From a candidate division WOR-3 bacterium (GTDB lineage Bacteria > Hydrothermota > Tepidihabitantia > SM23-42): DNA of 64,000 nucleotides. This document shows positions 11,270-51,043 of this stretch, in pieces. Below the pieces are notes generated by a model. The model saw nothing but the letters and a program-made list of their open reading frames with translations. It was not told where the DNA came from and made no database searches. Where the stretch lies: positions 23,986 through 87,985 of the forward strand of contig JALVOT010000014.1 in NCBI GenBank assembly GCA_027026255.1, written 5' to 3'. The translations under genes and the position numbers were made by a program. The number at the start of each line of letters is the position of its first letter. The first letter of the stretch is position 1.

Positions 11270-12208
11270 TTATTCTAATACAATTCTGGTTCCGGTCTGA
11301 CCAAGGATTGCCTGGCGTGCCTTGTCAAGGGATGTAATAATAACTTCTTTACCACCCTTTTCTAAAAAAGATATTGCTGATTCAATCTTGGGACCCATAT
11401 TACCCGGGGGGAAATGTCCTTCCTGTAAATATCTCTTCGCCTCAGAAACAGTCAGATTACGCAGCATTTTCTGGTCTGGTTTATTATAGTTCAGGTAAAT
11501 ATATTCAACATTGGTCAGGATTAAAAGGGTTTGAGCCTGAATATCAAAAGCAAGCACTGCCGAGGCACGGTCCTTATCAATTACTGCATCAACTCCTTCA
11601 TATGTTCCATCATTTTCTATATATACCGGGATACCACCACCACCGGCGGCGATAACAATAGTTCCTTCATCAACCAGTTCTCGAATGATACGTCGATTTA
11701 CAATCTTTATGGGTCGGGGTGAGGGCACGACCCGACGATAGCCTTTTCCTGAATCATCTTTTATCACCCAGTTGAATACCTTGGCAAGTTTTTCTGCCTG
11801 GTTTTTTGTATAGAATGGGCCAATAAATTTTGTTGGATTAATAATTGAAGGGTCGTCAGGGTCAACAATCACCTGAGTGACGATTGTAATTACATCCCTT
11901 TTAATACCCATCTGCATTAGTTTATTCTGAAGGCTCTGTTCAATCATATACCCCATACCGCCTTCAGTATCAGCAACAATCACACCCAGGGGCAGAACAG
12001 GAATGTCATGGGCGGTTCTTTCCACGCGCAAAAGGGCATTGCCCACCTGCGGTCCATTACCATGGGTAACGGCGAGGTTATAGCCTTCCTGGATTAATTC
12101 AACAATGCCCATCAATGCCTTTCTTGTATTGGCGAATTGTTCATGAATATTTTCTTTGCCGGTCTGGGCGATGGCATTTCCGCCCAGGGCAACGACTGCC
12201 TTCTTCAT
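11270..12208 (-). CDS. arcC: Carbamate kinase
   Basis: 312 aa; MKKAVVALGGNAI...VTHGNGPQVG...IAAGGGGIPV motifs of the carbamate kinase family. Confidence 0.85.
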   Translation of the reverse strand: MKKAVVALGGNAIAQTGKENIHEQFANTRKALMGIVELIQEGYNLAVTHGNGPQVGNALLRVERTAHDIPVLPLGVIVADTEGGMGYMIEQSLQNKLMQMGIKRDVITIVTQVIVDPDDPSIINPTKFIGPFYTKNQAEKLAKVFNWVIKDDSGKGYRRVVPSPRPIKIVNRRIIRELVDEGTIVIAAGGGGIPVYIENDGTYEGVDAVIDKDRASAVLAFDIQAQTLLILTNVEYIYLNYNKPDQKMLRNLTVSEAKRYLQEGHFPPGNMGPKIESAISFLEKGGKEVIITSLDKARQAILGQTGTRIVLE

Positions 12209-12213
12209 TTTGA

Positions 12214-12241
12214 ATTATAAATATAAACCGATAAAAGTCAA
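12214..12241 (-). promoter_or_regulatory. Leaderless sigma70-type promoter for arcC (TTGACT, 16 bp, TATAAT, 5 nt to ATG)
   Basis: -35 at 12236-12241, -10 at 12214-12219 on the minus strand. Confidence 0.55.
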
Positions 12242-12260: not shown

Positions 12261-14018
12261 TTACATTTTACGCCGTCCCTGAAATGTAAAGTTCTCATCA
12301 AGCCATCGCTTTACGGTCCGGGCAGATTCATATTTTTTTATTGCATTGAGATAGATATAGTTTTGCTGCGTCATTTTTTTGACCACCTCAAGGTTGAATT
12401 TCACCCTTGGATCATTTATTATCGGCGGTATTCTGATTTTCAGTTTATTGAAATTAAACGGTTGATATCCTGTAGTATCCTTTTTTATTTCGTAACAGAG
12501 ACCCCGGGGAACAGCGTGGTATGGTTTCAAGACAAAGGCAATATCATAATCAGGAAACGGCACGGCTAAGAATACACCATTGTCAAGTCGGGACCTGGTC
12601 ATAGCATTTAATAGATTGATGAATTTTTTCTGAATCAAAACAGGGTCATACTGAAGTCCATATTCAAATTTTCTCAATTCAACAAGATAGTCTTCAGTCT
12701 CTTTTTTTATCTGATTATAAAACTTTGGATATTCATTCTTGAGATATTTGATATACCAGGTTCGACGCAAAAGTTCTTTATCAACAACAATGAGGTCAGG
12801 TCTTATATTTTTTACTTTTCTCAAGTACATTATCGGTGAATAAATATCCCAGTAGGTAGTGATCAGCAAGCTGTTTTCTGGTAATTGCGAAATATGAGCG
12901 GCGCCGAATTGAAGCCCGAAGTGGTTATTTCTCAGGGTGCAGGATGCATAGTTCACGATGGGAAATATCGCGGCGATAATAAAAACAATCAGGGGTTTCA
13001 GATGGCGCGATAATAATTTTAAGCCGTATGCAGAGACAATGATTAAACCGACAAATCCTGGAATGTAATAGGATTCAATATCAGGAATTGAATAATTTAT
13101 TGCATAGAAGAGATTTAAGAGGATAGTAATTATAAAGAGCCAGAACTCTTTTCTTTTTTTAATGTATAGTGTGTAAAAACCCAGAATCGGAATTGGAATC
13201 AATACAAATAAAAAACCACGGGAGATTATTTTGAGTCCATTTAAAAGATTATTCAGTATCTCTTTAACTGATAAAGAAAACATCCATACTTGATACTGTT
13301 TGCCCGTAATATGCCAGAAAAGTCTTTGAAGATTATGTGTATTACCCCAGGCGATTTCTGCCCCGGCATTGGTTCTGATTAAAAGATAGAGATAAGGGCT
13401 TATGCCGATAAAAAAGAGGATGGATCCTGAGATGATTTTTTTTAGTCCCGGTCGCCAGGTAATTATGGTGTATAATAAGACCGGTATGGAGAGGGCAAAG
13501 ATTATAATGTGGTTTGTAAAGCTCAGGCCGATTAGATACATTATTATATAAAATGTGCGGTCGGTTTTTTCCTGATTGAGGGTATAAAAAATCAAGGTTG
13601 CAAAAAGAAGGGTGAAGGAATAGACCTCATTGGTTATCGCAATGCGCCAGACAATTGGTGCAAAGGCAAATAACGAAGTGATGATTACAGGGTGGATTTG
13701 ATTTCCAAGGATTTTTTGGGAAATTTTGTAGATAAAAAAGACTGAGATGATTGAGAAGAGAGCCGAGAGGAGGTTAAGTCCAATTATCGGTTCAGGAAAA
13801 AGATGGGCGAATGGATACGAAATGATTGTATATAATGGATAGCCAGTAGGATGGGCGATACCAAGGCAGCAGCTGACTGTGGCGAGTTCTCCGGAATCAA
13901 TCGTATAAACAGTCGGGCAGAGCGAGTAAAGATATATCAGAAAGGCAGCGCAGATAAATATAATTTCCGGAAGAAAATATTTTAATTTAATGATGACCTT
14001 TGCTGGATGGGTGCAGCC
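12261..14018 (-). CDS. DUF2723-like polytopic membrane protein (glycosyltransferase-C fold-like); 5' end anomalous, no canonical start before TTG at 13595
   Basis: ORF track gives 12261-13595, but the frame stays open and coding-like up to a TAA at 14019-14021 (...KYFLPEIIFICAAFLIYLYSLCPTVYTIDSGELATVSCCLGIAHPTGYPLYTI...). This carries the DSGEL / HPTGYPLY block I recall as the conserved N-terminal region of DUF2723 proteins. Confidence 0.5.
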   Translation of the reverse strand, partial: GCTHPAKVIIKLKYFLPEIIFICAAFLIYLYSLCPTVYTIDSGELATVSCCLGIAHPTGYPLYTIISYPFAHLFPEPIIGLNLLSALFSIISVFFIYKISQKILGNQIHPVIITSLFAFAPIVWRIAITNEVYSFTLLFATLIFYTLNQEKTDRTFYIIMYLIGLSFTNHIIIFALSIPVLLYTIITWRPGLKKIISGSILFFIGISPYLYLLIRTNAGAEIAWGNTHNLQRLFWHITGKQYQVWMFSLSVKEILNNLLNGLKIISRGFLFVLIPIPILGFYTLYIKKRKEFWLFIITILLNLFYAINYSIPDIESYYIPGFVGLIIVSAYGLKLLSRHLKPLIVFIIAAIFPIVNYASCTLRNNHFGLQFGAAHISQLPENSLLITTYWDIYSPIMYLRKVKNIRPDLIVVDKELLRRTWYIKYLKNEYPKFYNQIKKETEDYLVELRKFEYGLQYDPVLIQKKFINLLNAMTRSRLDNGVFLAVPFPDYDIAFVLKPYHAVPRGLCYEIKKDTTGYQPFNFNKLKIRIPPIINDPRVKFNLEVVKKMTQQNYIYLNAIKKYESARTVKRWLDENFTFQGRRKM

Positions 14019-14309
14019 TTACTCTTTCCGGGCGAAATTCAGGCGCAGGTTTGTTAACCGTGTCTGGATATCTTTTTTCTCCGCCGTGTCGAGTTCCGGT
14101 TCAATTATCTTGAACAGGGCATCGATTGAATCGATTGCAAGTCGTGCCTGTTTCAGGTCTTTGGTATGGCTCTGGGTTTCAGGATGGGCAACAAAATCCA
14201 TATAAGCCCAGGCCTTTGCCTCAAGCGAAAGGATATTCATTATCACCACCTCTTTTACCCGGATGGGCTTATCCAGCAATTTTTCTTTTTTTTCTTTCTT
14301 TTCAGCCAT
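14019..14309 (-). CDS. Hypothetical 96-aa Lys/Glu-rich protein; same frame as the DUF2723-like ORF, separated by one TAA
   Basis: ATG at 14307-14309 sits 6 nt after a perfect TTGACA, 16 bp, TATAAT promoter. Predicted helical and soluble, no recognised motif. Confidence 0.45.
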   Translation of the reverse strand: MAEKKEKKEKLLDKPIRVKEVVIMNILSLEAKAWAYMDFVAHPETQSHTKDLKQARLAIDSIDALFKIIEPELDTAEKKDIQTRLTNLRLNFARKE

Positions 14310-14315
14310 GGATGG

Positions 14316-14343
14316 ATTATATAAATTTATAAATTTTTGTCAA
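14316..14343 (-). promoter_or_regulatory. Leaderless sigma70-type promoter (TTGACA, 16 bp, TATAAT, 6 nt to ATG)
   Basis: -35 at 14338-14343, -10 at 14316-14321 on the minus strand. Confidence 0.55.
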
Positions 14344-15045: not shown

Positions 15046-15567
15046 TCAATTCAGATTCATTTTCAGGATTGGAAATTCAGGATGGTCGTGCTGAATCACG
15101 AATCCATTTTTCAGATAAAATTCTACTGGTCCGGCAGGATTATCTTCACTATTCTTTCGTGCGATGACCTGAACAGCAGTTATATTCCTCTCTTCTAAAT
15201 TTTCAAGCACTGAATTGAGAAGCACGGACCCAAATCCGGTTTCTCGATTGCGTTTTTTAAAGATAAATAAACAGGCAATTATGATTACATCAGGTTCCGG
15301 GATGACTGGATAGTTAATTAAATTGGGAAAGTATCGGGGTGGGGCATAGGTGGCATAACCGATAATTTTATCATCCACAGACAAGAGCCTTCCGCAGTCT
15401 CCAAATTCATTCCTTACATTTTTGAGCCATTCTTTTTTTATAGTTAGTAGATTATTATTTTCTTTACAATTTGCAATCTCGGGATGCTGCCAGTAAACAC
15501 AATGCTTACAACTTGATGAAACCGCATCTAATGTTTTTTCGGTCAGATTCAGAATCTGAATCTTCAA
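15046..15567 (-). CDS. GNAT-family N-acetyltransferase with N-terminal Cys pair
   Basis: 173 aa; acetyl-CoA motif A RNRETGFGSVLL; translationally adjacent to the SPFH gene (15567/15568). Confidence 0.55.
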   Translation of the reverse strand: MKIQILNLTEKTLDAVSSSCKHCVYWQHPEIANCKENNNLLTIKKEWLKNVRNEFGDCGRLLSVDDKIIGYATYAPPRYFPNLINYPVIPEPDVIIIACLFIFKKRNRETGFGSVLLNSVLENLEERNITAVQVIARKNSEDNPAGPVEFYLKNGFVIQHDHPEFPILKMNLN

Positions 15568-16509
15568 CTATTTAACCTGAAGCAGAGGGATAAAGTTTTT
15601 ATCATAGGGTGAAATCACAATTGTATTATTGGGAGAGTCATAAAGTTTCTGCAGATTTTCAAGGTATTTCCAGGAGAGATATGCCCTTCCTCTTTCACCG
15701 ATTAGAGATTGGGCAATTATGCGCTGTGCCTGAGCAATACCGGATGCCTCAATCTTCTTTCTTTCAGCCTCTTTCTTCTCCTTCTGGAGGACGAACTCCA
15801 TTTTCTGGGCTTCCTGTTCCGCCTCAAGTTTTGCCTCAATTGCGCTCTTTACCTTTGCCGGAAGACTGATATTTCTTAAAAGAACCTTTTCCAGCACTAT
15901 ACCGCGGCTTTCGTAGTCTTTCTTTAATGCCCGGGTGATTTCATTTTGAACCTCTTCGCGTTTTTCCGAATAGATTTCAACCGCCATATATCTTACTGTA
16001 GTATTTCTTATCGCTGTGCGGGCTGCCGGTCTGACAATCTTGGAGACATAATCACTGCCGATTTTCTGAAAGACAATCGCTGCCTTTTCCGGCATAAGAT
16101 GGAACCAGACCGTAAGGTCCATCTTGACCTCAAGCCCATCCCGGGTTAGTGCACTTATGGCATCATCACCGTATCTTTGACCCTCTTCAGTCGCCGCCGA
16201 CATTGTATATGCCTGGGTGCGGATACTCATAATTTTGAGGTTTATGAAGGGGTTAACAACATTGAGACCTTCACGCATGGTAGAACCGGTCAGGACCCGA
16301 CCGAAGAGTATCTGGATTCCAACTGAGCCAGGCGGCACAATGCGCAGGAGAGAAGTGATTATTAAAATAACAGCCAGGGCAGTTCCACCCATTGATACAT
16401 AGGAGCGAATTTTAAGTTTGTCCTGAAGCCGAAGATCTTCAGGTCTGACCTTGTAGGTTGCACGAAAGACAATTAAAAAAACGATGATAAGAATCCCTAA
16501 GATAAACAT
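15568..16509 (-). CDS. SPFH/band-7 domain membrane protein
   Basis: 313 aa; N-terminal TM, SPFH core, C-terminal Ala/Glu/Lys-rich coiled coil. Confidence 0.8.
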   Translation of the reverse strand: MFILGILIIVFLIVFRATYKVRPEDLRLQDKLKIRSYVSMGGTALAVILIITSLLRIVPPGSVGIQILFGRVLTGSTMREGLNVVNPFINLKIMSIRTQAYTMSAATEEGQRYGDDAISALTRDGLEVKMDLTVWFHLMPEKAAIVFQKIGSDYVSKIVRPAARTAIRNTTVRYMAVEIYSEKREEVQNEITRALKKDYESRGIVLEKVLLRNISLPAKVKSAIEAKLEAEQEAQKMEFVLQKEKKEAERKKIEASGIAQAQRIIAQSLIGERGRAYLSWKYLENLQKLYDSPNNTIVISPYDKNFIPLLQVK

Positions 16510-24197: not shown

Positions 24198-27100
24198 CCT
24201 TGCACTGATAGTTTTCGTTATTGCAGGGACAGATATCCGAACAGTTGAAGACGGTGTTATAGTATCATTTTCAATGACAAAGGTTGAGGCGGAAAGTCTT
24301 AAAATCCCTGATGCGCGGTGGTTAAATAAGGTCGGTGATCCGGCACTGCCTTGTTTACACTATAAATTCGGTATCCCACAGAATGGTGAGGTTGCGGTTT
24401 CGATACTGGAGAATGATGAGGCGGTGATCGATGGTCAGAAGATTGACCCAGTGGTTGAGTTGGGTATTAAGGAATCGGCACCCCGGGATACAGAATTATT
24501 CCGCAGTGAAGTCTATAAAGAAAATAAGTTTTTCCCTCACAATTTGGTTGTTGTTTCCGAACCGGGATATCTGCGTGATCTCTATACAGTTGATGTGCGG
24601 ATTAATCCGGTCCGTTATAACCCGGTGAAGAACCGGGTGCGTTATTCGAGAAGATTTATTATAAAAATAAAGTTTAAAGGTAAGCCGTTCATTAATGCTC
24701 CTTTTGATACTACATTTGAAAGGGTAATGCGCCATCTGGTTGATAATTATGAGCAGTGCCGTCTCTGGCGTTTGACACCATCACGGAATGGGACAAATCC
24801 ATTTGCCCAGGGAACCTGGTTTAAGATAGCGGTTGAAAAAGAGGGGATTTATCGGATTGGCTATAAAGAGATTAAGAATGCCGGGATCGACCCTGCCCAA
24901 TTTGACCCCAGGACGATGCGGATTTATACGGCAAAATTTGACCTCTTAACACGGAGCGTTCCATTGCCTGATTCACTCGATTCATTGGTTGAAATCCCCT
25001 GTTTTGTTCAGGGTGAATCAGATGGGGTGTTTAATAAAGATGACTATCTTGTTTTCTACGGCTATCCAGCAAGCCATTTTATTCCTGATACCTCAATTTC
25101 CTGGTTTTATAATGGATATGCAAAAAAGAATATCTACTGGTTTACATTTGGTGGAAAATATGGTAAGAGGATGTCGAGGGTAGATGCCCGTTATAATGGA
25201 GACCCTGTCGATACCCTGGTACAGGAGGTGCTGCATTTTGAAGAGGATAATGGTAATCCGACGCGTTCTGGCATAAACTGGTACTGGCAGGAGGTTTCCC
25301 CGGGTGAGGGTCAGGGCGCTGAAACCTCGGTTAATATTGAACATCCCTTTGCAGCGGGAGATGCCCGTATCAGCGCCAGCCTTTTCGATTCAATCGGGGT
25401 GAGCGGTCCATTTATTTATCGTTTTTCCGTAAATGATAATATAGCTTATAATGAGACCTTATCGCTCAGTTCTCACTGGTCATTTCCTCCCCAGTATTTT
25501 AATATCGAGACATCCTTAAAAGGTGATTCCTCTATTTTTAAGATTGAACTCATCCGACCCCAGGGGGTGGAAGGCAAGATGCTTGCCTGGTTTAATGCCC
25601 TTGATATTCTTTATCAGCGCCTCACCCGATTGACAGAACCTTTCCATGCATATTTTTCGGCACCCGAAGATTACTCTATCAAATGTGATGATGCAGAAGA
25701 ACCGGTTTTTGTCTTTGATATTTCTGATATACAAAATCCCAGGATGTTGTATAATTTAAAGCTGGATAATGGAAAACTTTATCTTTCAGGAACCTGCGAT
25801 TCTTTTCAGCTGCTCTATTTTTGTAAACTTGGTTCGACTGAACCGGTTAAATTGATTCCCGCCAAACCGGGAAAATTACGCGAGCATTCTTCTGGATGCC
25901 AGTATCTTATAATCACCCATCCGAAATTTTCTAAGGCGATAATGCCCCTTGTGCACTACCGCAGCCAGGACTATACAGTTAGGGTGGTGAATATTTATGA
26001 AATCTATGATGATTTTTCATACGGAAAGTTTGACCCCTTAGCGATTAAGCATTTCTTTTATTATGCCCTTAATAACTGGGATGTCTTTCCGAGTTTTGTG
26101 CTTTTGGTGGGTGACGGCACATACGATTATAAGAATAATCTTCATAAAGAAAATCCTCCCAATTATATTCCGATGTATGAAACAGGGAGTCTTTTAATCG
26201 GTAATCCCGGAATTCCTCCGAATACAATTTATGAAGGTGAATATACCGATTTTGGAGGCGGCGAGTCAGTTGCCTCAGGCAGAATCACGGTCAGGACCAA
26301 TGCCGAGGTCAGGGACTTTATTGATAAGTTAATTACCTATGAGACGAAAAATATTGACGGTATCTGGAATCAAAGGATTATCCTTGCCGGTGATGATGAG
26401 TATGCGGGAAACCACTGGGAAGGACCGGATATGCACTGTGGCGCCTGTGAGGCTATATTCAGGAATGTCCCGGATTCTCTTTATAACTTCGCCAAGATTT
26501 ATATGATAAGTTATCCGCCGTTTCCACCCTACGGAGGTCAGGTCAATAAGGTGAATGCCCGCAAGGCATTTATTCGGGAATTGAATAAGGGCGGTTTTGC
26601 CGGAGTCTATTTCGGCCATGGCAATACTCATCAGCTTGCCCATGAAGGGCTCTTCTATGATATTTATATTCCCGAAATAAATAATGGGAGACGATGTTAT
26701 TTCTTTTATTTTGGTTCCTGCACCGTAGGAAGGTTTGATGATTCGGATTATGAATGTATCGGTGAGGAATTTGTGCGGATTAAAGACGGCGCAATCGGCA
26801 CGATGGCATCAACCGGTGGCACCTATGTGCAGGGTAATGTGGCTATCGGTAATACTCTTTTTAGACTGATGACCTCACCGGATAGTGATTTGACAATGGG
26901 CGAGTGTTTTCGCATCGCCAAGGTGTATGGAAGCCCGTCATATCTTCTTATCGGTGAGCCGGCAACGAGATTAAGAAAAATAAAGACAAAAATGACATTG
27001 ACTGCCTTGAGTGATTCATTGAAGCCCCTTCAAAGGTTGAAAGCGGTCGGGTCTGTCCCTTATTATTATCTTGACGCCTTTGTTCGTGATACTACACATA

Positions 27101-28023
27101 TCGAGAAGTTTGATGCTACAACCCAGGATAAGATTAGTGGTCATGTCTATCGGTTGGTCCAGACCGGACGGAATGCCTGGAAACCGTTTGATTATCAAAT
27201 AGATGGTAAAGAGATATATTCAGGATTCTGGGATGATGATACTGCGAAGATGATTGTTCCGCAGGTATCTACGGTAAACCGCCCGGTAGTAAAATTGACC
27301 TATTGCGCCAATCGCAAATCTGGTTCGCTCGATTCAATTCTGATTTATGGGGTGGCATCACCTTCATCTGATGATCAGGGACCGCAACTAAAACTTTATG
27401 ATCAGGCAAGGGTTTTACAGAATGGGGATTGGGTGGATAAGGATTTTATCCTTACCGGTCGGGTTGCTGATATGAGCGGCATTAATCTGCTAAATTCAGT
27501 TGAGGACATCAATCGCGGTTTTTATCTCTATATAAATAATGATATCGATAATAGGATTGATTTAAGAGACTATTTTACCTATGATAAGAATTCCTATACA
27601 GATGGAACATTTAATGTGAAGATTAGCCTGCCTAATCCGGTTGATACAATTAAGATAAATGTTGCGGATAATAATTATAATCAGACATATCAGAAACTTA
27701 TATTAAATACCGATATTTATGAATCGGTTAAGATTTCTAATTTTCTGGTCTATCCAAATCCGATTACAAATGACGCCGGGGTGTGGTTTACATTTAACCT
27801 TTCAAGTTCAGCCCTGGTTAATTTAAAGGTCTTTACAATTGCAGGACGACTTGTAAAGACAATCGATGATTTCTACTGTCGAGCCGGTTATAATCAGAAA
27901 TTCTGGGATGGTCTTGATGATTCGGGTCAGCCTCTTGCTAATGGAGTTTATCTGGTCAGGGCATATTGTGAGAAGGCTAACGCCCGGACTGAAGTGATTG
28001 AAAAATTTATTATCGCCCGATAA
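24190..28023 (+). CDS. Gingipain-like cysteine peptidase (family C25) with T9SS-type C-terminal sorting domain
   Basis: 1277 aa; C25 catalytic dyad context [10 protein letters not shown]...[15 protein letters not shown]; C-terminal about 80 aa ([20 protein letters not shown]...[10 protein letters not shown]) resembles the T9SS CTD beta-sandwich. Confidence 0.7.
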
Positions 28024-28045
28024 TTTTACTGTAAGGGAGTGAAAG

Positions 28046-28513
28046 ATGGAAAAATTGATCGACCGGGTGGAGTTCAACACCCGGGTGGCAAAGGTTACAT
28101 TGCAGAAGGTTACAGACAAACCCGGTATTGCTGCGGAGATATTTTCTCTGCTGGGTAAACATGGCATAAATGTTGAACTGATTTCGAGTTGCTCGGTAGG
28201 CCAAAAGAAGTCTGATATTTCACTGGCAGTGCTGGAAGATGACCTTGATGAGGTGGTGAGAATTCTAAAGAAATTTAAAGAAAAGTTTGGTATGAAGGGG
28301 ATTTTGGTCGATAAAGATGTTGGAATGATATCGGTCTTTGGTGAAAATCTTTCCCGGCAACCGAATGTTGCCTCTTATATCTTCCATATGATTTCTGAGG
28401 AGGGTATTAATATTAAGATGATTAATGCCTCAATGCTGGTTATGACCATTGTAATTGATGAGAAGAGGATTATGGATATAGTCGCCTCTTTAAGGGCCGA
28501 ATTTATGATTTGA
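28046..28513 (+). CDS. Tandem ACT-domain protein
   Basis: 155 aa; two ACT-like repeats (VTDKPGIAAEIFSLLGKHGINVELI; QPNVASYIFHMISEEGINIKMI); AGGGAG SD. Confidence 0.55.
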   Translation: MEKLIDRVEFNTRVAKVTLQKVTDKPGIAAEIFSLLGKHGINVELISSCSVGQKKSDISLAVLEDDLDEVVRILKKFKEKFGMKGILVDKDVGMISVFGENLSRQPNVASYIFHMISEEGINIKMINASMLVMTIVIDEKRIMDIVASLRAEFMI

Positions 28514-39724: not shown

Positions 39725-39752
39725 TTGACAAGTAATAGTTATTAGATATAAT
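39725..39752 (+). promoter_or_regulatory. Leaderless sigma70-type promoter (TTGACA, 16 bp, TATAAT, 6 nt to ATG 39759)
   Basis: Perfect consensus hexamers. Confidence 0.6.
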
Positions 39753-39758
39753 TTCATT

Positions 39759-40775
39759 ATGATGCTTAAGAGATTGAGTGAGTTATATGGTGTGAGTGGT
39801 GATGAGGAAGAGGTGAGAAATTTTATCAAACTACAGATTAAGGATGATGTCGATGATATGATTGAAGATGCCTATGGTAATTTGATTGCCCGTAAAGGAA
39901 AGAAAAAGCTTCCTAAGATAATGCTTGCTGCACATATGGATGAGGTTGGCTTTATGATCACTGCGGTTGAAAAGAACGGCCTTTTGAGGTTTCGTTCGAT
40001 TGGAATATTGCCCCAGGTGGTTCTGGCAAAACGGGTGGCATTTCGTAATAAAGATATCAAAGGGGTTATTGGTGCGAAACCTGTCCATCAATTAAAACCT
40101 GAAGAACAGAAAAGTATCCCAGAACCGGACCAACTATTTATTGATATCGGGGTTAGTAGCAAGGAAGAGGCAGAAAAATTGGTGCAGGTGGGTGATTACT
40201 GCACATTTGATACCCGATTCCGCAGGCAGGGTAATACCATTTTTGGAAAGGCGTTTGACAATCGGGTCGGTTGTTATGTGCTTATTCAATTAATAAAAAA
40301 TTATGACCTACCATGTTATTATACCTTCACCGTGCAGGAGGAGTTGGGATTGATGGGTGCCCGTATCGCCGGTTATCGTATTGACCCGCAGATTGCCCTG
40401 GCAGTTGATACGACCGCATCAGGAAAATGGCCGACAGAAAAGGATCTTCCTCAATATCCTGAATTAAATAAGGGACCGGCAATCAGTATCGCCGACCGTT
40501 CTGTAATCTGTGACAAAGAATTAACCGGGCTTATAATCAAAACCGCCCAGGAAAACAGTATACCATATCAGTTCAAAAGGCCGATGATTGGGGGGACCGA
40601 TGCCGGGGAGATTCATCTTGTTAAAAGAGGTGTGAAGAGTGCGGTATTATGCACACCAGCCCGATATATCCATTCACCACTCTCTATCGCTTCATTAAAG
40701 GACATTGAGGCGTTGATTAAATTATTGAACCTAAGTATTAAAAAGATTTTAACCAGGGGAGAACTATGGAATTGA
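39759..40775 (+). CDS. M42-family metallo-aminopeptidase (FrvX/TET-like)
   Basis: 338 aa; AAHMDEVGFMI, metal-ligand contexts; tandem with a paralogue. Confidence 0.8.
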   Translation: MMLKRLSELYGVSGDEEEVRNFIKLQIKDDVDDMIEDAYGNLIARKGKKKLPKIMLAAHMDEVGFMITAVEKNGLLRFRSIGILPQVVLAKRVAFRNKDIKGVIGAKPVHQLKPEEQKSIPEPDQLFIDIGVSSKEEAEKLVQVGDYCTFDTRFRRQGNTIFGKAFDNRVGCYVLIQLIKNYDLPCYYTFTVQEELGLMGARIAGYRIDPQIALAVDTTASGKWPTEKDLPQYPELNKGPAISIADRSVICDKELTGLIIKTAQENSIPYQFKRPMIGGTDAGEIHLVKRGVKSAVLCTPARYIHSPLSIASLKDIEALIKLLNLSIKKILTRGELWN

Positions 40776-49072: not shown

Positions 49073-51043
49073 GTGAGGAAAAAATTGGTTGCAATTAACG
49101 ATTTATATAAGATAAAGTTTTTAAGGGAAATCACTCTCGCCCCATCCGGGGACAGGATTGCCTATACAGTAGAATGGCTTGACTACAAAAAAAATACTTA
49201 CTACTCAAACCTCTATGTTGTTGACCTCAAGGCAGGGGTGCGCCATTATATCAGGGGTAATAAGAAGATAAGAAGCCTGCGCTGGTCACCGGATGGTAAA
49301 TTTATTTCATTCATTATGTCGGAAAAAGAGAGTCAGCATATCTGGTTGATACCGGTTGATGGTGGTGAACCATTCTCCCTTACCAGTGTCCCGGGCTCAT
49401 TTGGAAAATATGTCTGGACACCGAACAGCAGATATATAATCTGTGAATTCACCAAACATAAGGAGGATAAAGAGAGAATCCCTGAAAAGGGTAAACCACC
49501 ACTATACTACTATATAAAAAGACCCTGGTATAAACTCGATGGCAGGGGTATACTCCCGGAAGAGAAACCACATATCTGGCGGGTGCATACAAAAACCGGC
49601 GTAATGAAACAACTTACATCCGGTAAGAATGGAGATACCTCTCCTAATATTTCTCCCGACGGTAAAAAGATTGTCTTCGTATCCAATCGCCGGGAATCAT
49701 TTGAAGAGAAACTGCTCTATACTGATATCTTTGTTGTTGATATTGAAGGTAAAAAAGAAATGAAGATAAAGACCCTGCCCGGGCCCAAGGCGGCGCCATT
49801 TTTCCTGCCCGATAATGAAACGATTGTCTATGTGGGAAGAAAATATCCGAATGACTATGCCGGATGGCGTAATGACTATATCTGGGCAGTGGGGATGAAA
49901 AAGGGGAAGGTGGTGAATCTTACTGCTTCTCTGGACCGCACTGTTTCGGACCGGGTGATTGATGATCTGGGTCATCCTGAGGGAGATGAACCAAAGCCGT
50001 CCCGGGATGGCAAAAAAATATTCTTTGCCGCAACTGATTATGGAAATACAATACTCTATGGTGTCTCTGTCAAAAAGAGAAAGGTATTTAAATATTATGA
50101 TGAACCGGGAAGGGTGTATGCTTTTGATTATGATGGAAAAGAAACTTTTGTTATTGCCCGTTCTACGCCAACCGACCCCGGTAATATCTATCTGTTGAAA
50201 AATGGTAGGTCACAAAAATTGACCGACATCAACAGAGATTATCATCAGAGCCATCGCATTGCAAGTCCTGAGGAGATTCGATTCACCGGTTTCAAGGGAA
50301 GGGAGATACAGGGCTGGATATTAAAGCCCCCTGATTTTAATAAAAACAGGCGATATCCTTTATTGGTTCAAATTCATGGTGGACCACATTTTAGCTACGG
50401 CAATTCATTCTTCCATGAATTTCAGGTGCTTGCGGCAAATGGTTATATCGTATTTTACTGTAATCCCCATGGCAGTATCGGTTACGGTGAAGGATTTGCT
50501 GAGGAATTGCACAATAGATGGGGGATACCTGATTCACAGGATATATTGAAGGGTATTGCAATACTTAAAAGGCGGCGATACATTGATCAGAAAAGACTCG
50601 GGGTTATGGGGGGAAGTTATGGAGGTTTTATGACCAACTGGCTTATCGGACATACCGATATCTTCAGGGCGGCGGTCACGATGCGCAGTGTTGTTAATAT
50701 GCTTTCGTTCTTCAGCTCAGATTTCGGGTTTTCCTTAGCAAGGGAATTTAAGGGTTTATGGTGGCATCCAAAGAATTTTAAATTTTACTGGAATATGTCG
50801 CCGATAAAATATGTTGCTAAGATAAGGACTCCATTGCTCATTGTTCATTCTGAACAGGACCACCGCTGTCCAATAAGTCAGGGGGAAGAACTTTTTGTCG
50901 CCTTAAAATTGTTAAAGCGGGAAGTTGAGATGCTGCGTTTCCCTTCAGAATCCCATGGATTGTCCCGACATGGTTCACCCCGGCGCCGGGAAAAGAGGCT
51001 TGAATTCATCCTGAAATTTGTTGACCGATATTTAAAAAAATAG
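49073..51043 (+). CDS. S9-family serine peptidase (prolyl oligopeptidase/acylaminoacyl-peptidase type) with N-terminal beta-propeller
   Basis: 656 aa; nucleophile elbow GGSYGG; C-terminal Asp/His region; AAGGAG SD before GTG. Confidence 0.8.
   Translation: MRKKLVAINDLYKIKFLREITLAPSGDRIAYTVEWLDYKKNTYYSNLYVVDLKAGVRHYIRGNKKIRSLRWSPDGKFISFIMSEKESQHIWLIPVDGGEPFSLTSVPGSFGKYVWTPNSRYIICEFTKHKEDKERIPEKGKPPLYYYIKRPWYKLDGRGILPEEKPHIWRVHTKTGVMKQLTSGKNGDTSPNISPDGKKIVFVSNRRESFEEKLLYTDIFVVDIEGKKEMKIKTLPGPKAAPFFLPDNETIVYVGRKYPNDYAGWRNDYIWAVGMKKGKVVNLTASLDRTVSDRVIDDLGHPEGDEPKPSRDGKKIFFAATDYGNTILYGVSVKKRKVFKYYDEPGRVYAFDYDGKETFVIARSTPTDPGNIYLLKNGRSQKLTDINRDYHQSHRIASPEEIRFTGFKGREIQGWILKPPDFNKNRRYPLLVQIHGGPHFSYGNSFFHEFQVLAANGYIVFYCNPHGSIGYGEGFAEELHNRWGIPDSQDILKGIAILKRRRYIDQKRLGVMGGSYGGFMTNWLIGHTDIFRAAVTMRSVVNMLSFFSSDFGFSLAREFKGLWWHPKNFKFYWNMSPIKYVAKIRTPLLIVHSEQDHRCPISQGEELFVALKLLKREVEMLRFPSESHGLSRHGSPRRREKRLEFILKFVDRYLKK

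Follow-up and report, generated by a model that had tools for sequence, protein, structure and literature searches.

How a gene can be translated when its reading frame offers no canonical start codon at the expected N-terminus is the question raised by one locus in a 64-kb stretch of DNA (64,000 nucleotides, hereafter the window) from a WOR-3 bacterium. All features of this locus lie on the minus strand, with coordinates descending in the direction of reading. From 14309 to 12261 a single frame is interrupted by TAA at 14021–14019 and closed by TAA at 12263–12261, these two being its only stops. An ORF for 96 amino acids ends at the first of them, as the initial annotation had pointed out, and the same frame then continues for 585 open codons (14018–12261) with no internal stop or frameshift. 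The annotation had also described this second part as start-less over its first 141 codons, and indeed the earliest ATG, GTG or TTG after the first TAA is the TTG at 13595–13593, which is codon 142. Direct reading of the sequence revealed no ATG, GTG or TTG in any frame from 14018 to about 13945, and, of the alternative starts allowed by translation table 11, the upper part of the frame offers ATC at 13994–13992 and ATT at 13991–13989, with no others.

The length of the start-free run, 141 codons, has a probability of about 0.002 given the codon usage of the window, but it is not the rare part of the phenomenon. In the same window, four other genes contain runs of 144–216 codons free of canonical starts, and two orthologues contain none of these codons in the equivalent 101 codons. 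The true anomaly is the absence of a start in an N-terminal slot of approximately 10 codons, which is occupied by one in 135 of 135 related loci. The idea that selection keeps internal starts out of the first 141 codons was rejected, since orthologues carry from 0 to 7 of them per the same 101 codons and longer start-free runs exist in other genes of the window. Odd start usage or recoding throughout the genome was rejected as well, because other plausible genes of the window start canonically and none of the three stop codons is left unused. In every other plausible gene-sized stop-to-stop frame of the window a canonical start appears no more than 25 codons past the upstream stop. Four frames that depart from this (646–1170, 26329–26808, 27823–28374 and 49697–50209, all on the minus strand) are largely contained within longer ORFs and look spurious.

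The product of the long frame had been taken for a DUF2723-like membrane protein with a conserved-looking N-terminal block inside the start-less stretch. Both statements agree with the profile search, in which PF11028 (TMEM260-like) scored 79.8 bits (cut-off 24.2) and matched residues 41–186 of the extended frame, beginning at codon 41. Alignment with human TMEM260 (PDB 9rql) gave E = 5.9e-27 and joined residues 15–423 of the window protein with residues 34–482 of the human chain. Judged by this homology, the gene is a GT117/TMEM260-like glycosyltransferase. Counted from ATC it occupies 13994–12261, terminates at TAA 12263–12261 and encodes 577 amino acids, the family median being 573. The DSGEL...AHPTGYP segment aligns on GDSGEL...AHPPGYP of 9rql with an Asp–His spacing of 15 residues in both proteins, so that the sugar-recognition motif at 13898–13851 comprises D33 (GAT, 13898–13896) and H48 (CAT, 13853–13851), equivalents of human D52 and H67. 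In the human enzyme this motif is located between TMH1 and TMH2, the D52A variant is inactive, mutation of H67 abolishes activity, and D441 of the Rossmann-like domain serves as the catalytic base (bioRxiv 10.64898/2026.03.17.711096). The latter is aligned with D383 of the window protein (GAT, 12848–12846), YWDIYSP being matched to GDLPGNS. The start-less stretch is therefore needed, since two of the residues that it specifies correspond to D52 and H67, both of them essential.

The position at which the protein should begin was deduced from its relatives. In each of the 135 related loci whose upstream region is complete, a canonical start stands at least 15 codons ahead of the Asp of DSGEL, and the window locus, lacking one, is the sole exception among 136. 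The initial annotation had named orthologues beginning at the equivalent of 13595 as an observation that would speak against it; instead, 135 of 135 start upstream of this Asp. In the 21 closest loci the start is found at about −32 to −38 relative to it, while ATC and ATT of the window occupy −32 and −31, respectively. Approximately half of the close loci begin this gene with TTG or GTG, and TTG is also the start of the closest relative of the window protein (74% amino-acid identity). In the sister species L001 the TTG start at −32 is aligned with the ATC of the window, and the same is true for L164, a strain variant of L001, in which a 14-nt duplication at the start kept the TTG at −32 in frame and shifted the other upstream TTG out. 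This pins the start at −32. An ATC or ATT start was not found in any of the 135 relatives, and, since it is common to none of them, there is no sign of selection maintaining it. Genome and metagenome scans for closer relatives that could date the loss of the canonical start returned nothing between 76% and 100% identity.

The upstream 96-aa ORF (14309–14019, ATG start) is a DUF1844 gene, as its residues 25–93 match PF08899 with 46.4 bits (cut-off 27), and its dN/dS relative to L001 is 0.10. The perfect leaderless promoter ascribed to it is indeed present: TTGACA-N16-TATAAT at 14343–14316 coincides with the sigma-70-type consensus in 12 of 12 positions, and the ATG at 14309 lies 6 nt past the −10 hexamer, which makes the transcript probably leaderless. 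The promoter is nearly identical in L001 and L164, with one change in the −35 element (TTGACT), while the sequence upstream of −35 is unrelated. Neither promoter-like nor terminator-like sites were found on the same strand between the two genes; a weak 9/12 promoter match at 13985–13957 was discarded as an internal promoter of GT117, being downstream of the proposed start. DUF1844 immediately precedes GT117 in 21 WOR-3/Stahlbacteria relatives, and in all 21 they are separate genes, located in the same frame in 9 cases and in different frames in 12. In six relatives the TTG start comes 14 nt before the stop codon of DUF1844, generating a 17-nt gene overlap; some others have gaps of 3–23 nt, and in six the gap reaches 140–350 nt. 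The in-frame relation of the two genes in the window is a coincidence. They are two separate genes, probably co-transcribed from one promoter of the leaderless type, and the first would end at a genuine TAA. Exposure of this conserved operon provides the uncharacterised DUF1844 family with a functional neighbour.

Thus, no canonical start is present at or upstream of the N-terminus defined by homology, and ATC/ATT (13994–13989) takes the orthologous start position 24–27 nt away from the TAA of DUF1844. The spacer contains a conserved block CCATCCAGCAAAG (14010–13998), 12 of 13 positions of which are the same in L001. A 1-nt indel on its 3' side puts this block into different frames relative to the ORF in the window and in L001, and conservation of the DNA despite the difference in frame indicates that CCATCCAGCAAAG is non-coding. 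At its 3' end there is AAAGG (14001–13997), 2 nt ahead of ATC and 5 nt ahead of ATT. It is a weak Shine-Dalgarno-like motif, inferior to the GGAGG/AAGGAG motifs located 5–8 nt ahead of the starts of other window genes; a 16S rRNA gene is absent from the 64-kb window. No stable RNA structure was predicted at the start region or junction (fold z-scores were about 0 for both the window and L001), and neither an Rfam match nor a tRNA was found at the junction. Near-cognate codons further downstream (ATT 13964, ATA 13961, ATC 13955 and CTG 13940) were also considered as starts but not preferred: initiation there would shorten TMH1, no purine-rich motif precedes them, and they come after the position at which the orthologues start.

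Based on these data we consider it probable that the gene is intact and that its translation is weakly initiated at ATC or ATT after AAAGG. According to this scheme, the canonical start, which is TTG in the closest relative, was replaced in the window lineage; translation would begin at ATC 13994 or ATT 13991, the weak AAAGG motif and the unstructured A/U-rich context may help initiation, and a protein of 576–577 amino acids would be produced at a low level. The analysis demonstrates how the gene is built, where its N-terminus lies, that a canonical start is missing and that the gene is intact and constrained; real use of these codons, at a level of expression that suffices, is inferred. Initiation from AUU, AUC, AUA and CUG in E. 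coli amounts to 1–2% of the AUG level, and infC and pcnB of this species have natural AUU starts. Evolution very rarely switches a canonical start to AUU or CUG, at 1.6e-5 to 4e-4 per start (PMC5622118). Inefficiency of near-cognate codons, weakness of the Shine-Dalgarno-like motif and rarity of such switches were counted against the use of ATC/ATT.

Apart from the start codon, the gene has no signs of decay. Its dN/dS relative to L001 is 0.11 overall; the N-terminal 132 codons taken alone give 0.156 and the remainder 0.096. Tajima relative-rate counts were 27–37 versus 26–34 (p >= 0.25 with all 10 outgroups), and the N-terminal part had not gathered changes in excess. Stop codons, dN/dS and relative rates, therefore, gave no sign of what is typical of pseudogenes, be it disabling lesions other than the start codon or a relaxation of constraint. 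At positions kept by at least 95% of homologues, 5 changes specific to the lineage were counted in the window protein and 2 in its sister, which may be a faint hint of relaxed constraint, although among homologues the number of changes at highly conserved positions varies from 0 to 7 and the 5 changes of the window are within this range.

It is this small excess of unique changes, together with the solitary position of the locus among 136, a non-canonical state common to no relative and the inefficiency of near-cognate initiation, that keeps in play a recent loss of the start. The allele would then be null or badly impaired, an incipient pseudogene that had too little time to acquire further lesions. 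We regard this as unlikely, although it is the strongest alternative and a very recent loss would be compatible with the following observations too: all 585 codons remain open in an AT-rich genome, the purifying constraint is similar in the start-less part, the rate is not accelerated against a sister lineage that has retained TTG, the three residues that human TMEM260 requires are kept, and a near-cognate codon stands exactly at the orthologous start behind a Shine-Dalgarno-like motif. An error of consensus or assembly that conceals a real ATG, GTG or TTG would also explain why there is a single exception among 136 loci, the more so as a change of 1–2 bases restores a canonical start. However, the junction is 100% identical in an ENA scaffold of 40.6 kb (over 5.7 kb) and in a Logan contig of SRR13622960 (over 2.6 kb), even though these samples may not be independent, and the start site has no homopolymer or low-complexity feature. 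The base-call error suggested initially is, therefore, very improbable. Least credible of all is a DUF1844–GT117 fusion protein, arising from readthrough of TAA or encoded by a recently interrupted fused gene. The ORFs are in frame both in the window and in L001, but in 12 of 21 relatives the two frames are not the same, some pairs overlap, PF08899 and PF11028 were combined in none of the best 120 homologues, and the spacer peptide is not conserved, the spacer DNA being preserved in the sister in another frame. Among stop codons UAA is, besides, the one least prone to readthrough. Two ideas proposed on first inspection, readthrough of the stop codon and interruption of an ancestral fusion by a nonsense mutation, thus find no support.

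Coupling to the upstream gene is a different matter, since it leaves ATC/ATT as the start and questions only the origin of the ribosomes. They may stay on the mRNA after the TAA of DUF1844, move 24–27 nt and reinitiate, in which case initiation would hang on DUF1844 translation. Conservation of the gene pair in 21 relatives, 17-nt overlaps in six of them, gaps of 3–23 nt in others, which make ancestral coupling plausible, and the failure to find an internal promoter or terminator are in line with this assumption. On the other hand, pairs native to E. coli and Haloferax lose 40–80% of reinitiation at 13–14 nt and almost all of it at about 22–38 nt (PMC10666635), and spacers of 140–350 nt in six relatives indicate that coupling is not obligatory for the pair. 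An overlap or a distance of up to about 10 nt (threshold from PMC10666635) is observed in six relatives, while the window has 24–27 nt. Dependence on reinitiation is accordingly improbable, and slightly more so in its strict form, where GT117 is expressed exclusively through the leaderless DUF1844 cistron, with 70S ribosomes moving approximately 25 nt and reinitiating at AUC/AUU. Were it true, the output of GT117 would be strictly tied to DUF1844 translation, and the locus would exemplify natural near-cognate reinitiation on a leaderless bicistronic mRNA. From the original idea of reinitiation at a non-canonical codon, the codon itself, aligned with the TTG of a relative in an intact and constrained gene, is thus the best supported part, whereas reinitiation has been weakened.

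Direct initiation at ATC/ATT has precedents in E. coli infC and pcnB, where an N-terminus supported by homology likewise coincides with a near-cognate codon of the AUU type and initiation proceeds at a low level, as we suppose for the window gene. The AUU of infC has been retained in different species and has its role in the autoregulation of IF3, while ATC/ATT of the window is unique to one genome, the relatives use ATG, GTG or TTG, and no regulatory logic is apparent. With translationally coupled pairs the locus shares conserved co-oriented genes and, in many relatives, a short spacer or overlap, but its own gap of 24–27 nt exceeds the range of efficient reinitiation in the pairs tested (PMC10666635). 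The protein resembles the human protein O-mannosyltransferase TMEM260 (GT117) in its PF11028 domain, GT-C transmembrane module and correspondence of D33/H48/D383 to D52/H67/D441. It differs in having 577 amino acids, and no part of it was aligned with the TPR domain at the C-terminus of the human enzyme (residues 565–706), which binds the acceptor; no Pfam TPR match was detected in it, and the alignment with 9rql ends at residue 423 of the query and 482 of the chain. As in start-loss pseudogenes and truncated gene calls of metagenome-assembled genomes, a gene caller fell back on an internal ATG, but, unlike such pseudogenes, the gene shows no decay besides the start codon. Most likely, then, it begins at a rare ATC/ATT codon. 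The start loss is unusual for a GT117 gene, yet it belongs to a known kind of exception and does not reveal a new mechanism. Its value as a clean natural example lies in the replacement of a canonical start by ATC/ATT in a gene that is otherwise constrained, such switches being rare.

The chief practical consequence concerns annotation. The public gene model (P0001) starts even after TTG 13595, at ATG 13541, comprises 426 amino acids and has no Pfam domain on record. It is a truncation: with a start at either 13595 or 13541 the transmembrane GT-C module would lose its first third, and D33 and H48 with it, and P0001 is thereby deprived of two essential residues of a GT117 glycosyltransferase. 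Gene callers limited to ATG, GTG and TTG will repeat such truncation wherever a start has drifted to a near-cognate codon. In the gap left by P0001 a spurious 44-aa ORF was called on the opposite strand. Translation of the start-less stretch upstream of 13595 would yield the tryptic peptide ILGNQIHPVIITSLFAFAPIVWR.

Read codon by codon, the minus-strand frame from 14309 to 12261 is interrupted by a single stop, TAA 14021-14019, before it ends at TAA 12263-12261. Past that first stop, the first ATG, GTG or TTG is TTG 13595-13593 at codon 142, and the first ATG of the frame is found at 13541. The missing start is therefore real, and the initial annotation was right both in seeing no canonical start within 13596-14018 and in placing a single TAA between this frame and the 96-codon ORF. 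Direct reading of the minus strand gave no ATG, GTG or TTG in any frame from 14018 to about 13945, and near the top of the frame table 11 offers no alternative starts other than ATC 13994-13992 and ATT 13991-13989. The 96-aa ORF (14309-14019, minus strand) belongs to DUF1844 (Pfam, 46.4 bits against a cut-off of 27), and the long frame encodes a TMEM260-like/DUF2723 protein (PF11028, 79.8 bits against a cut-off of 24.2, plus PMT_2). Its top database matches (553-590 aa) come from candidate division WOR-3, TA06 and Stahlbacteria, some of them named ‘glycosyltransferase family 117 protein’ (hence GT117). The sole 100%-identical entry, P0001, is a 426-aa model; it begins at the internal ATG 13541, and its record lists no Pfam domain. 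Opposite the N-terminal part thus left unannotated, a 44-aa ORF was called publicly at 13851-13985 of the plus strand, which is almost certainly spurious. At the C-terminus the window protein is 24 residues longer (12264-12335, minus strand, versus 4666-4668 in L001) than P0002, the GT117 protein of L001, the locus of the closest relative.

The conserved N-terminal block does lie in the start-less stretch, as had been claimed: the PF11028 match begins at codon 41, well within it, and the counterparts of two residues essential in human TMEM260 are encoded there. Residues 15-423 align with human TMEM260 (PDB 9rql, E = 5.9e-27), with D33 (GAT 13898-13896, minus strand) opposite D52, H48 (CAT 13853-13851, minus strand) opposite H67 and D383 opposite D441. 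In the human protein the variants D52A and D441A lack activity, which mutation of H67 likewise abolishes (bioRxiv 10.64898/2026.03.17.711096). Initiation at TTG 13595 or ATG 13541 would cost the protein a third of its transmembrane GT-C module, the first, together with D33 and H48; such a product could not be an active GT-C enzyme.

ATG, GTG and TTG jointly account for 4.3% of window codons, which gives P ~0.002 for a start-free run of 141 codons; runs of 144-216 codons occur within four other window genes, and two orthologues have no such codon across the equivalent 101 codons. The length of 141 codons thus overstates the anomaly. The real exception is the lack of a start codon in a short N-terminal slot: all 135 related loci whose upstream region is complete carry ATG, GTG or TTG 15 or more codons ahead of the Asp in the DSGEL motif, and in the 21 closest loci the start is at about −32 to −38 codons from this Asp. 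All other plausible gene-sized frames in the window have a canonical start no more than 25 codons past the upstream stop; four gene-sized frames that do not are mostly inside longer ORFs and look spurious. The start loss is a single-gene lesion rather than a property of the genome.

A base-call error, one of the explanations offered initially, is not borne out, since two other assemblies, ENA scaffold ERZ23491057 (40.6 kb) and a Logan contig built from SRR13622960, match the window at 100% identity over 5.7 and 2.6 kb, respectively, junction included; different assemblers thus agree, though the underlying samples may not be independent. Stop-codon readthrough and a recent nonsense mutation in a fused gene had also been proposed. 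By tblastn DUF1844 was found directly upstream of GT117 in 21 close WOR-3/Stahlbacteria relatives (L001-L020, L032), always as a separate gene and in varying arrangement: in six loci the GT117 TTG start is 14 nt before the DUF1844 stop, giving a 17-nt overlap, six others have a gap of 3-45 nt, and in six Stahlbacteria-type loci the spacer reaches 140-350 nt. An ancestral fusion, later interrupted, is therefore unsupported. Only 9 of the 21 relatives have both genes in the same frame, and PF08899 and PF11028 occur together in none of the 120 best homologues, which answers the initial suggestion to look for orthologues with the 96-aa segment fused. The in-frame relation in the window is thus a one-in-three coincidence and the TAA an ordinary stop, leaving readthrough without support. 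That the pairing is conserved points to a possible functional link for DUF1844, an uncharacterised family. Stahlbacteria-type spacers (L002 2683-3000, L003 2791-2930, L007 271-410, also L016 and L032) contain 8-nt-periodic repeats, with (T)ATCAG units in their left part and CCTG(A/G)TA units in their right part. The two sets jointly make a long imperfect inverted repeat, and a further 28-nt inverted repeat nested in L002 (2752-2779 and 2886-2913, 93% complementary) looks like a small inserted element; the window has none of these features.

Alignment of orthologues, recommended initially, placed their N-termini upstream of the equivalent of 13595. L001, from a metagenome-assembled genome with 74% amino-acid identity, shares the order promoter, DUF1844, TAA, GT117, and its TTG reads L-S-R-I-R-Y-F-L-P-E, aligning with I-I-K-L-K-Y-F-L-P-E of the window. 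The strain variant L164 (99.5% identical to L001) carries a 14-nt tandem duplication, TTTGTCCAGGATAA, exactly at the GT117 TTG start (about 1475-1505, equivalent to L001 3004-3020), so this clade varies in the start region. The duplication preserves an in-frame TTG and shifts the alternative upstream TTG out of frame, which fixes the real start at the equivalent of window ATC 13994. The 13-nt spacer block CCATCCAGCAAAG (14010-13998) is identical to L001 at 12 of 13 positions, and a 1-nt indel 3′ of it changes its frame relative to the ORF between the two species; it is thus conserved as non-coding, and its ‘GCTHPAK’ codons are outside the protein. AAAGG at its 3′ end, 2 nt before ATC and 5 nt before ATT, is akin to purine-rich Shine-Dalgarno motifs preceding other window genes. 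The start of the public 426-aa model should be moved upstream, to 13994 or 13991.

The promoter TTGACA-N16-TATAAT (14343-14316, minus strand) matches the consensus at 12 of 12 positions, with the DUF1844 ATG 6 nt past the end of the −10 hexamer, in line with the perfect leaderless promoter noticed earlier. L001 and L164 carry almost the same promoter, differing at one position of the −35 hexamer (TTGACT); upstream of the −35 the sequences are unrelated. Such a layout fits a leaderless bicistronic transcript. Neither promoter-like nor terminator-like sites were found between DUF1844 and GT117 on this strand, and the start region has no significant RNA structure (fold z ~0). Based on this we propose that AUC or AUU initiates GT117 translation independently and inefficiently behind the weak AAAGG motif, resembling the natural AUU starts of E. 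coli infC and pcnB; such near-cognate codons give there 1-2% of AUG (bioRxiv 10.1101/063800). About half of the close loci start GT117 with a weak TTG or GTG, so low expression seems to be the norm in relatives, and its further drop may be tolerated. Initiation coupled to DUF1844 termination is possible, but the gap of 24-27 nt argues against its efficiency: in native gene pairs reinitiation falls by 40-80% at 13-14 nt and is almost abolished at 22-38 nt (PMC10666635). Among the initial options non-canonical initiation at ATC/ATT is therefore best supported as to the site, but not as efficient reinitiation, and obligate near-cognate reinitiation on leaderless mRNA is unlikely.

Alternatively, the window may carry a very recent start-loss allele. 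Relative to L001, dN/dS of GT117 is 0.11 for the whole gene, 0.156 in the 132 N-terminal codons that precede the first canonical start and 0.096 in the remainder. Both this measure and the relative-rate tests take in a long branch (dS about 1.1-1.5) as a whole, and a very recent loss could escape them. These low values, similar in the start-less part, and a length of 577 aa against the family median of 573 are evidence that the gene is still constrained; dN/dS of DUF1844 is 0.10. Tajima tests with ten outgroups (27-37 window-unique and 26-34 sister-unique changes, p at least 0.25) registered no acceleration on the window branch versus the TTG-bearing sister and no excess change in the N-terminal third. 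The lone contrary signal, a faint one, is five lineage-specific substitutions at positions conserved in 95% or more of homologues, versus two in the sister (range among homologues 0-7). The feature is thus a rare exception of a known kind, a near-cognate start or, alternatively, a very recent start-loss allele, in the conserved DUF1844-GT117 operon of a WOR-3-lineage bacterium. It needs no new mechanism. Evolutionary switches from canonical to AUU or CUG starts are known but infrequent, at 1.6e-5 to 4e-4 per start (PMC5622118).

Leaderless-type layouts with near-consensus −35/−10 elements and ATG 5-6 nt past the −10 were also seen at 12206-12241 (minus strand), before an AA_kinase-family gene (ATG 12208), and at 39725-39761 (plus strand), before the gene starting at 39759. 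GGAGG-type Shine-Dalgarno motifs precede most other window genes, so the organism apparently mixes both initiation modes. At 15565-15570 (minus strand) the TTG start of a 173-aa ORF (15567-15046) abuts the TAG stop of the upstream Band_7 gene, which suggests a tightly coupled pair.
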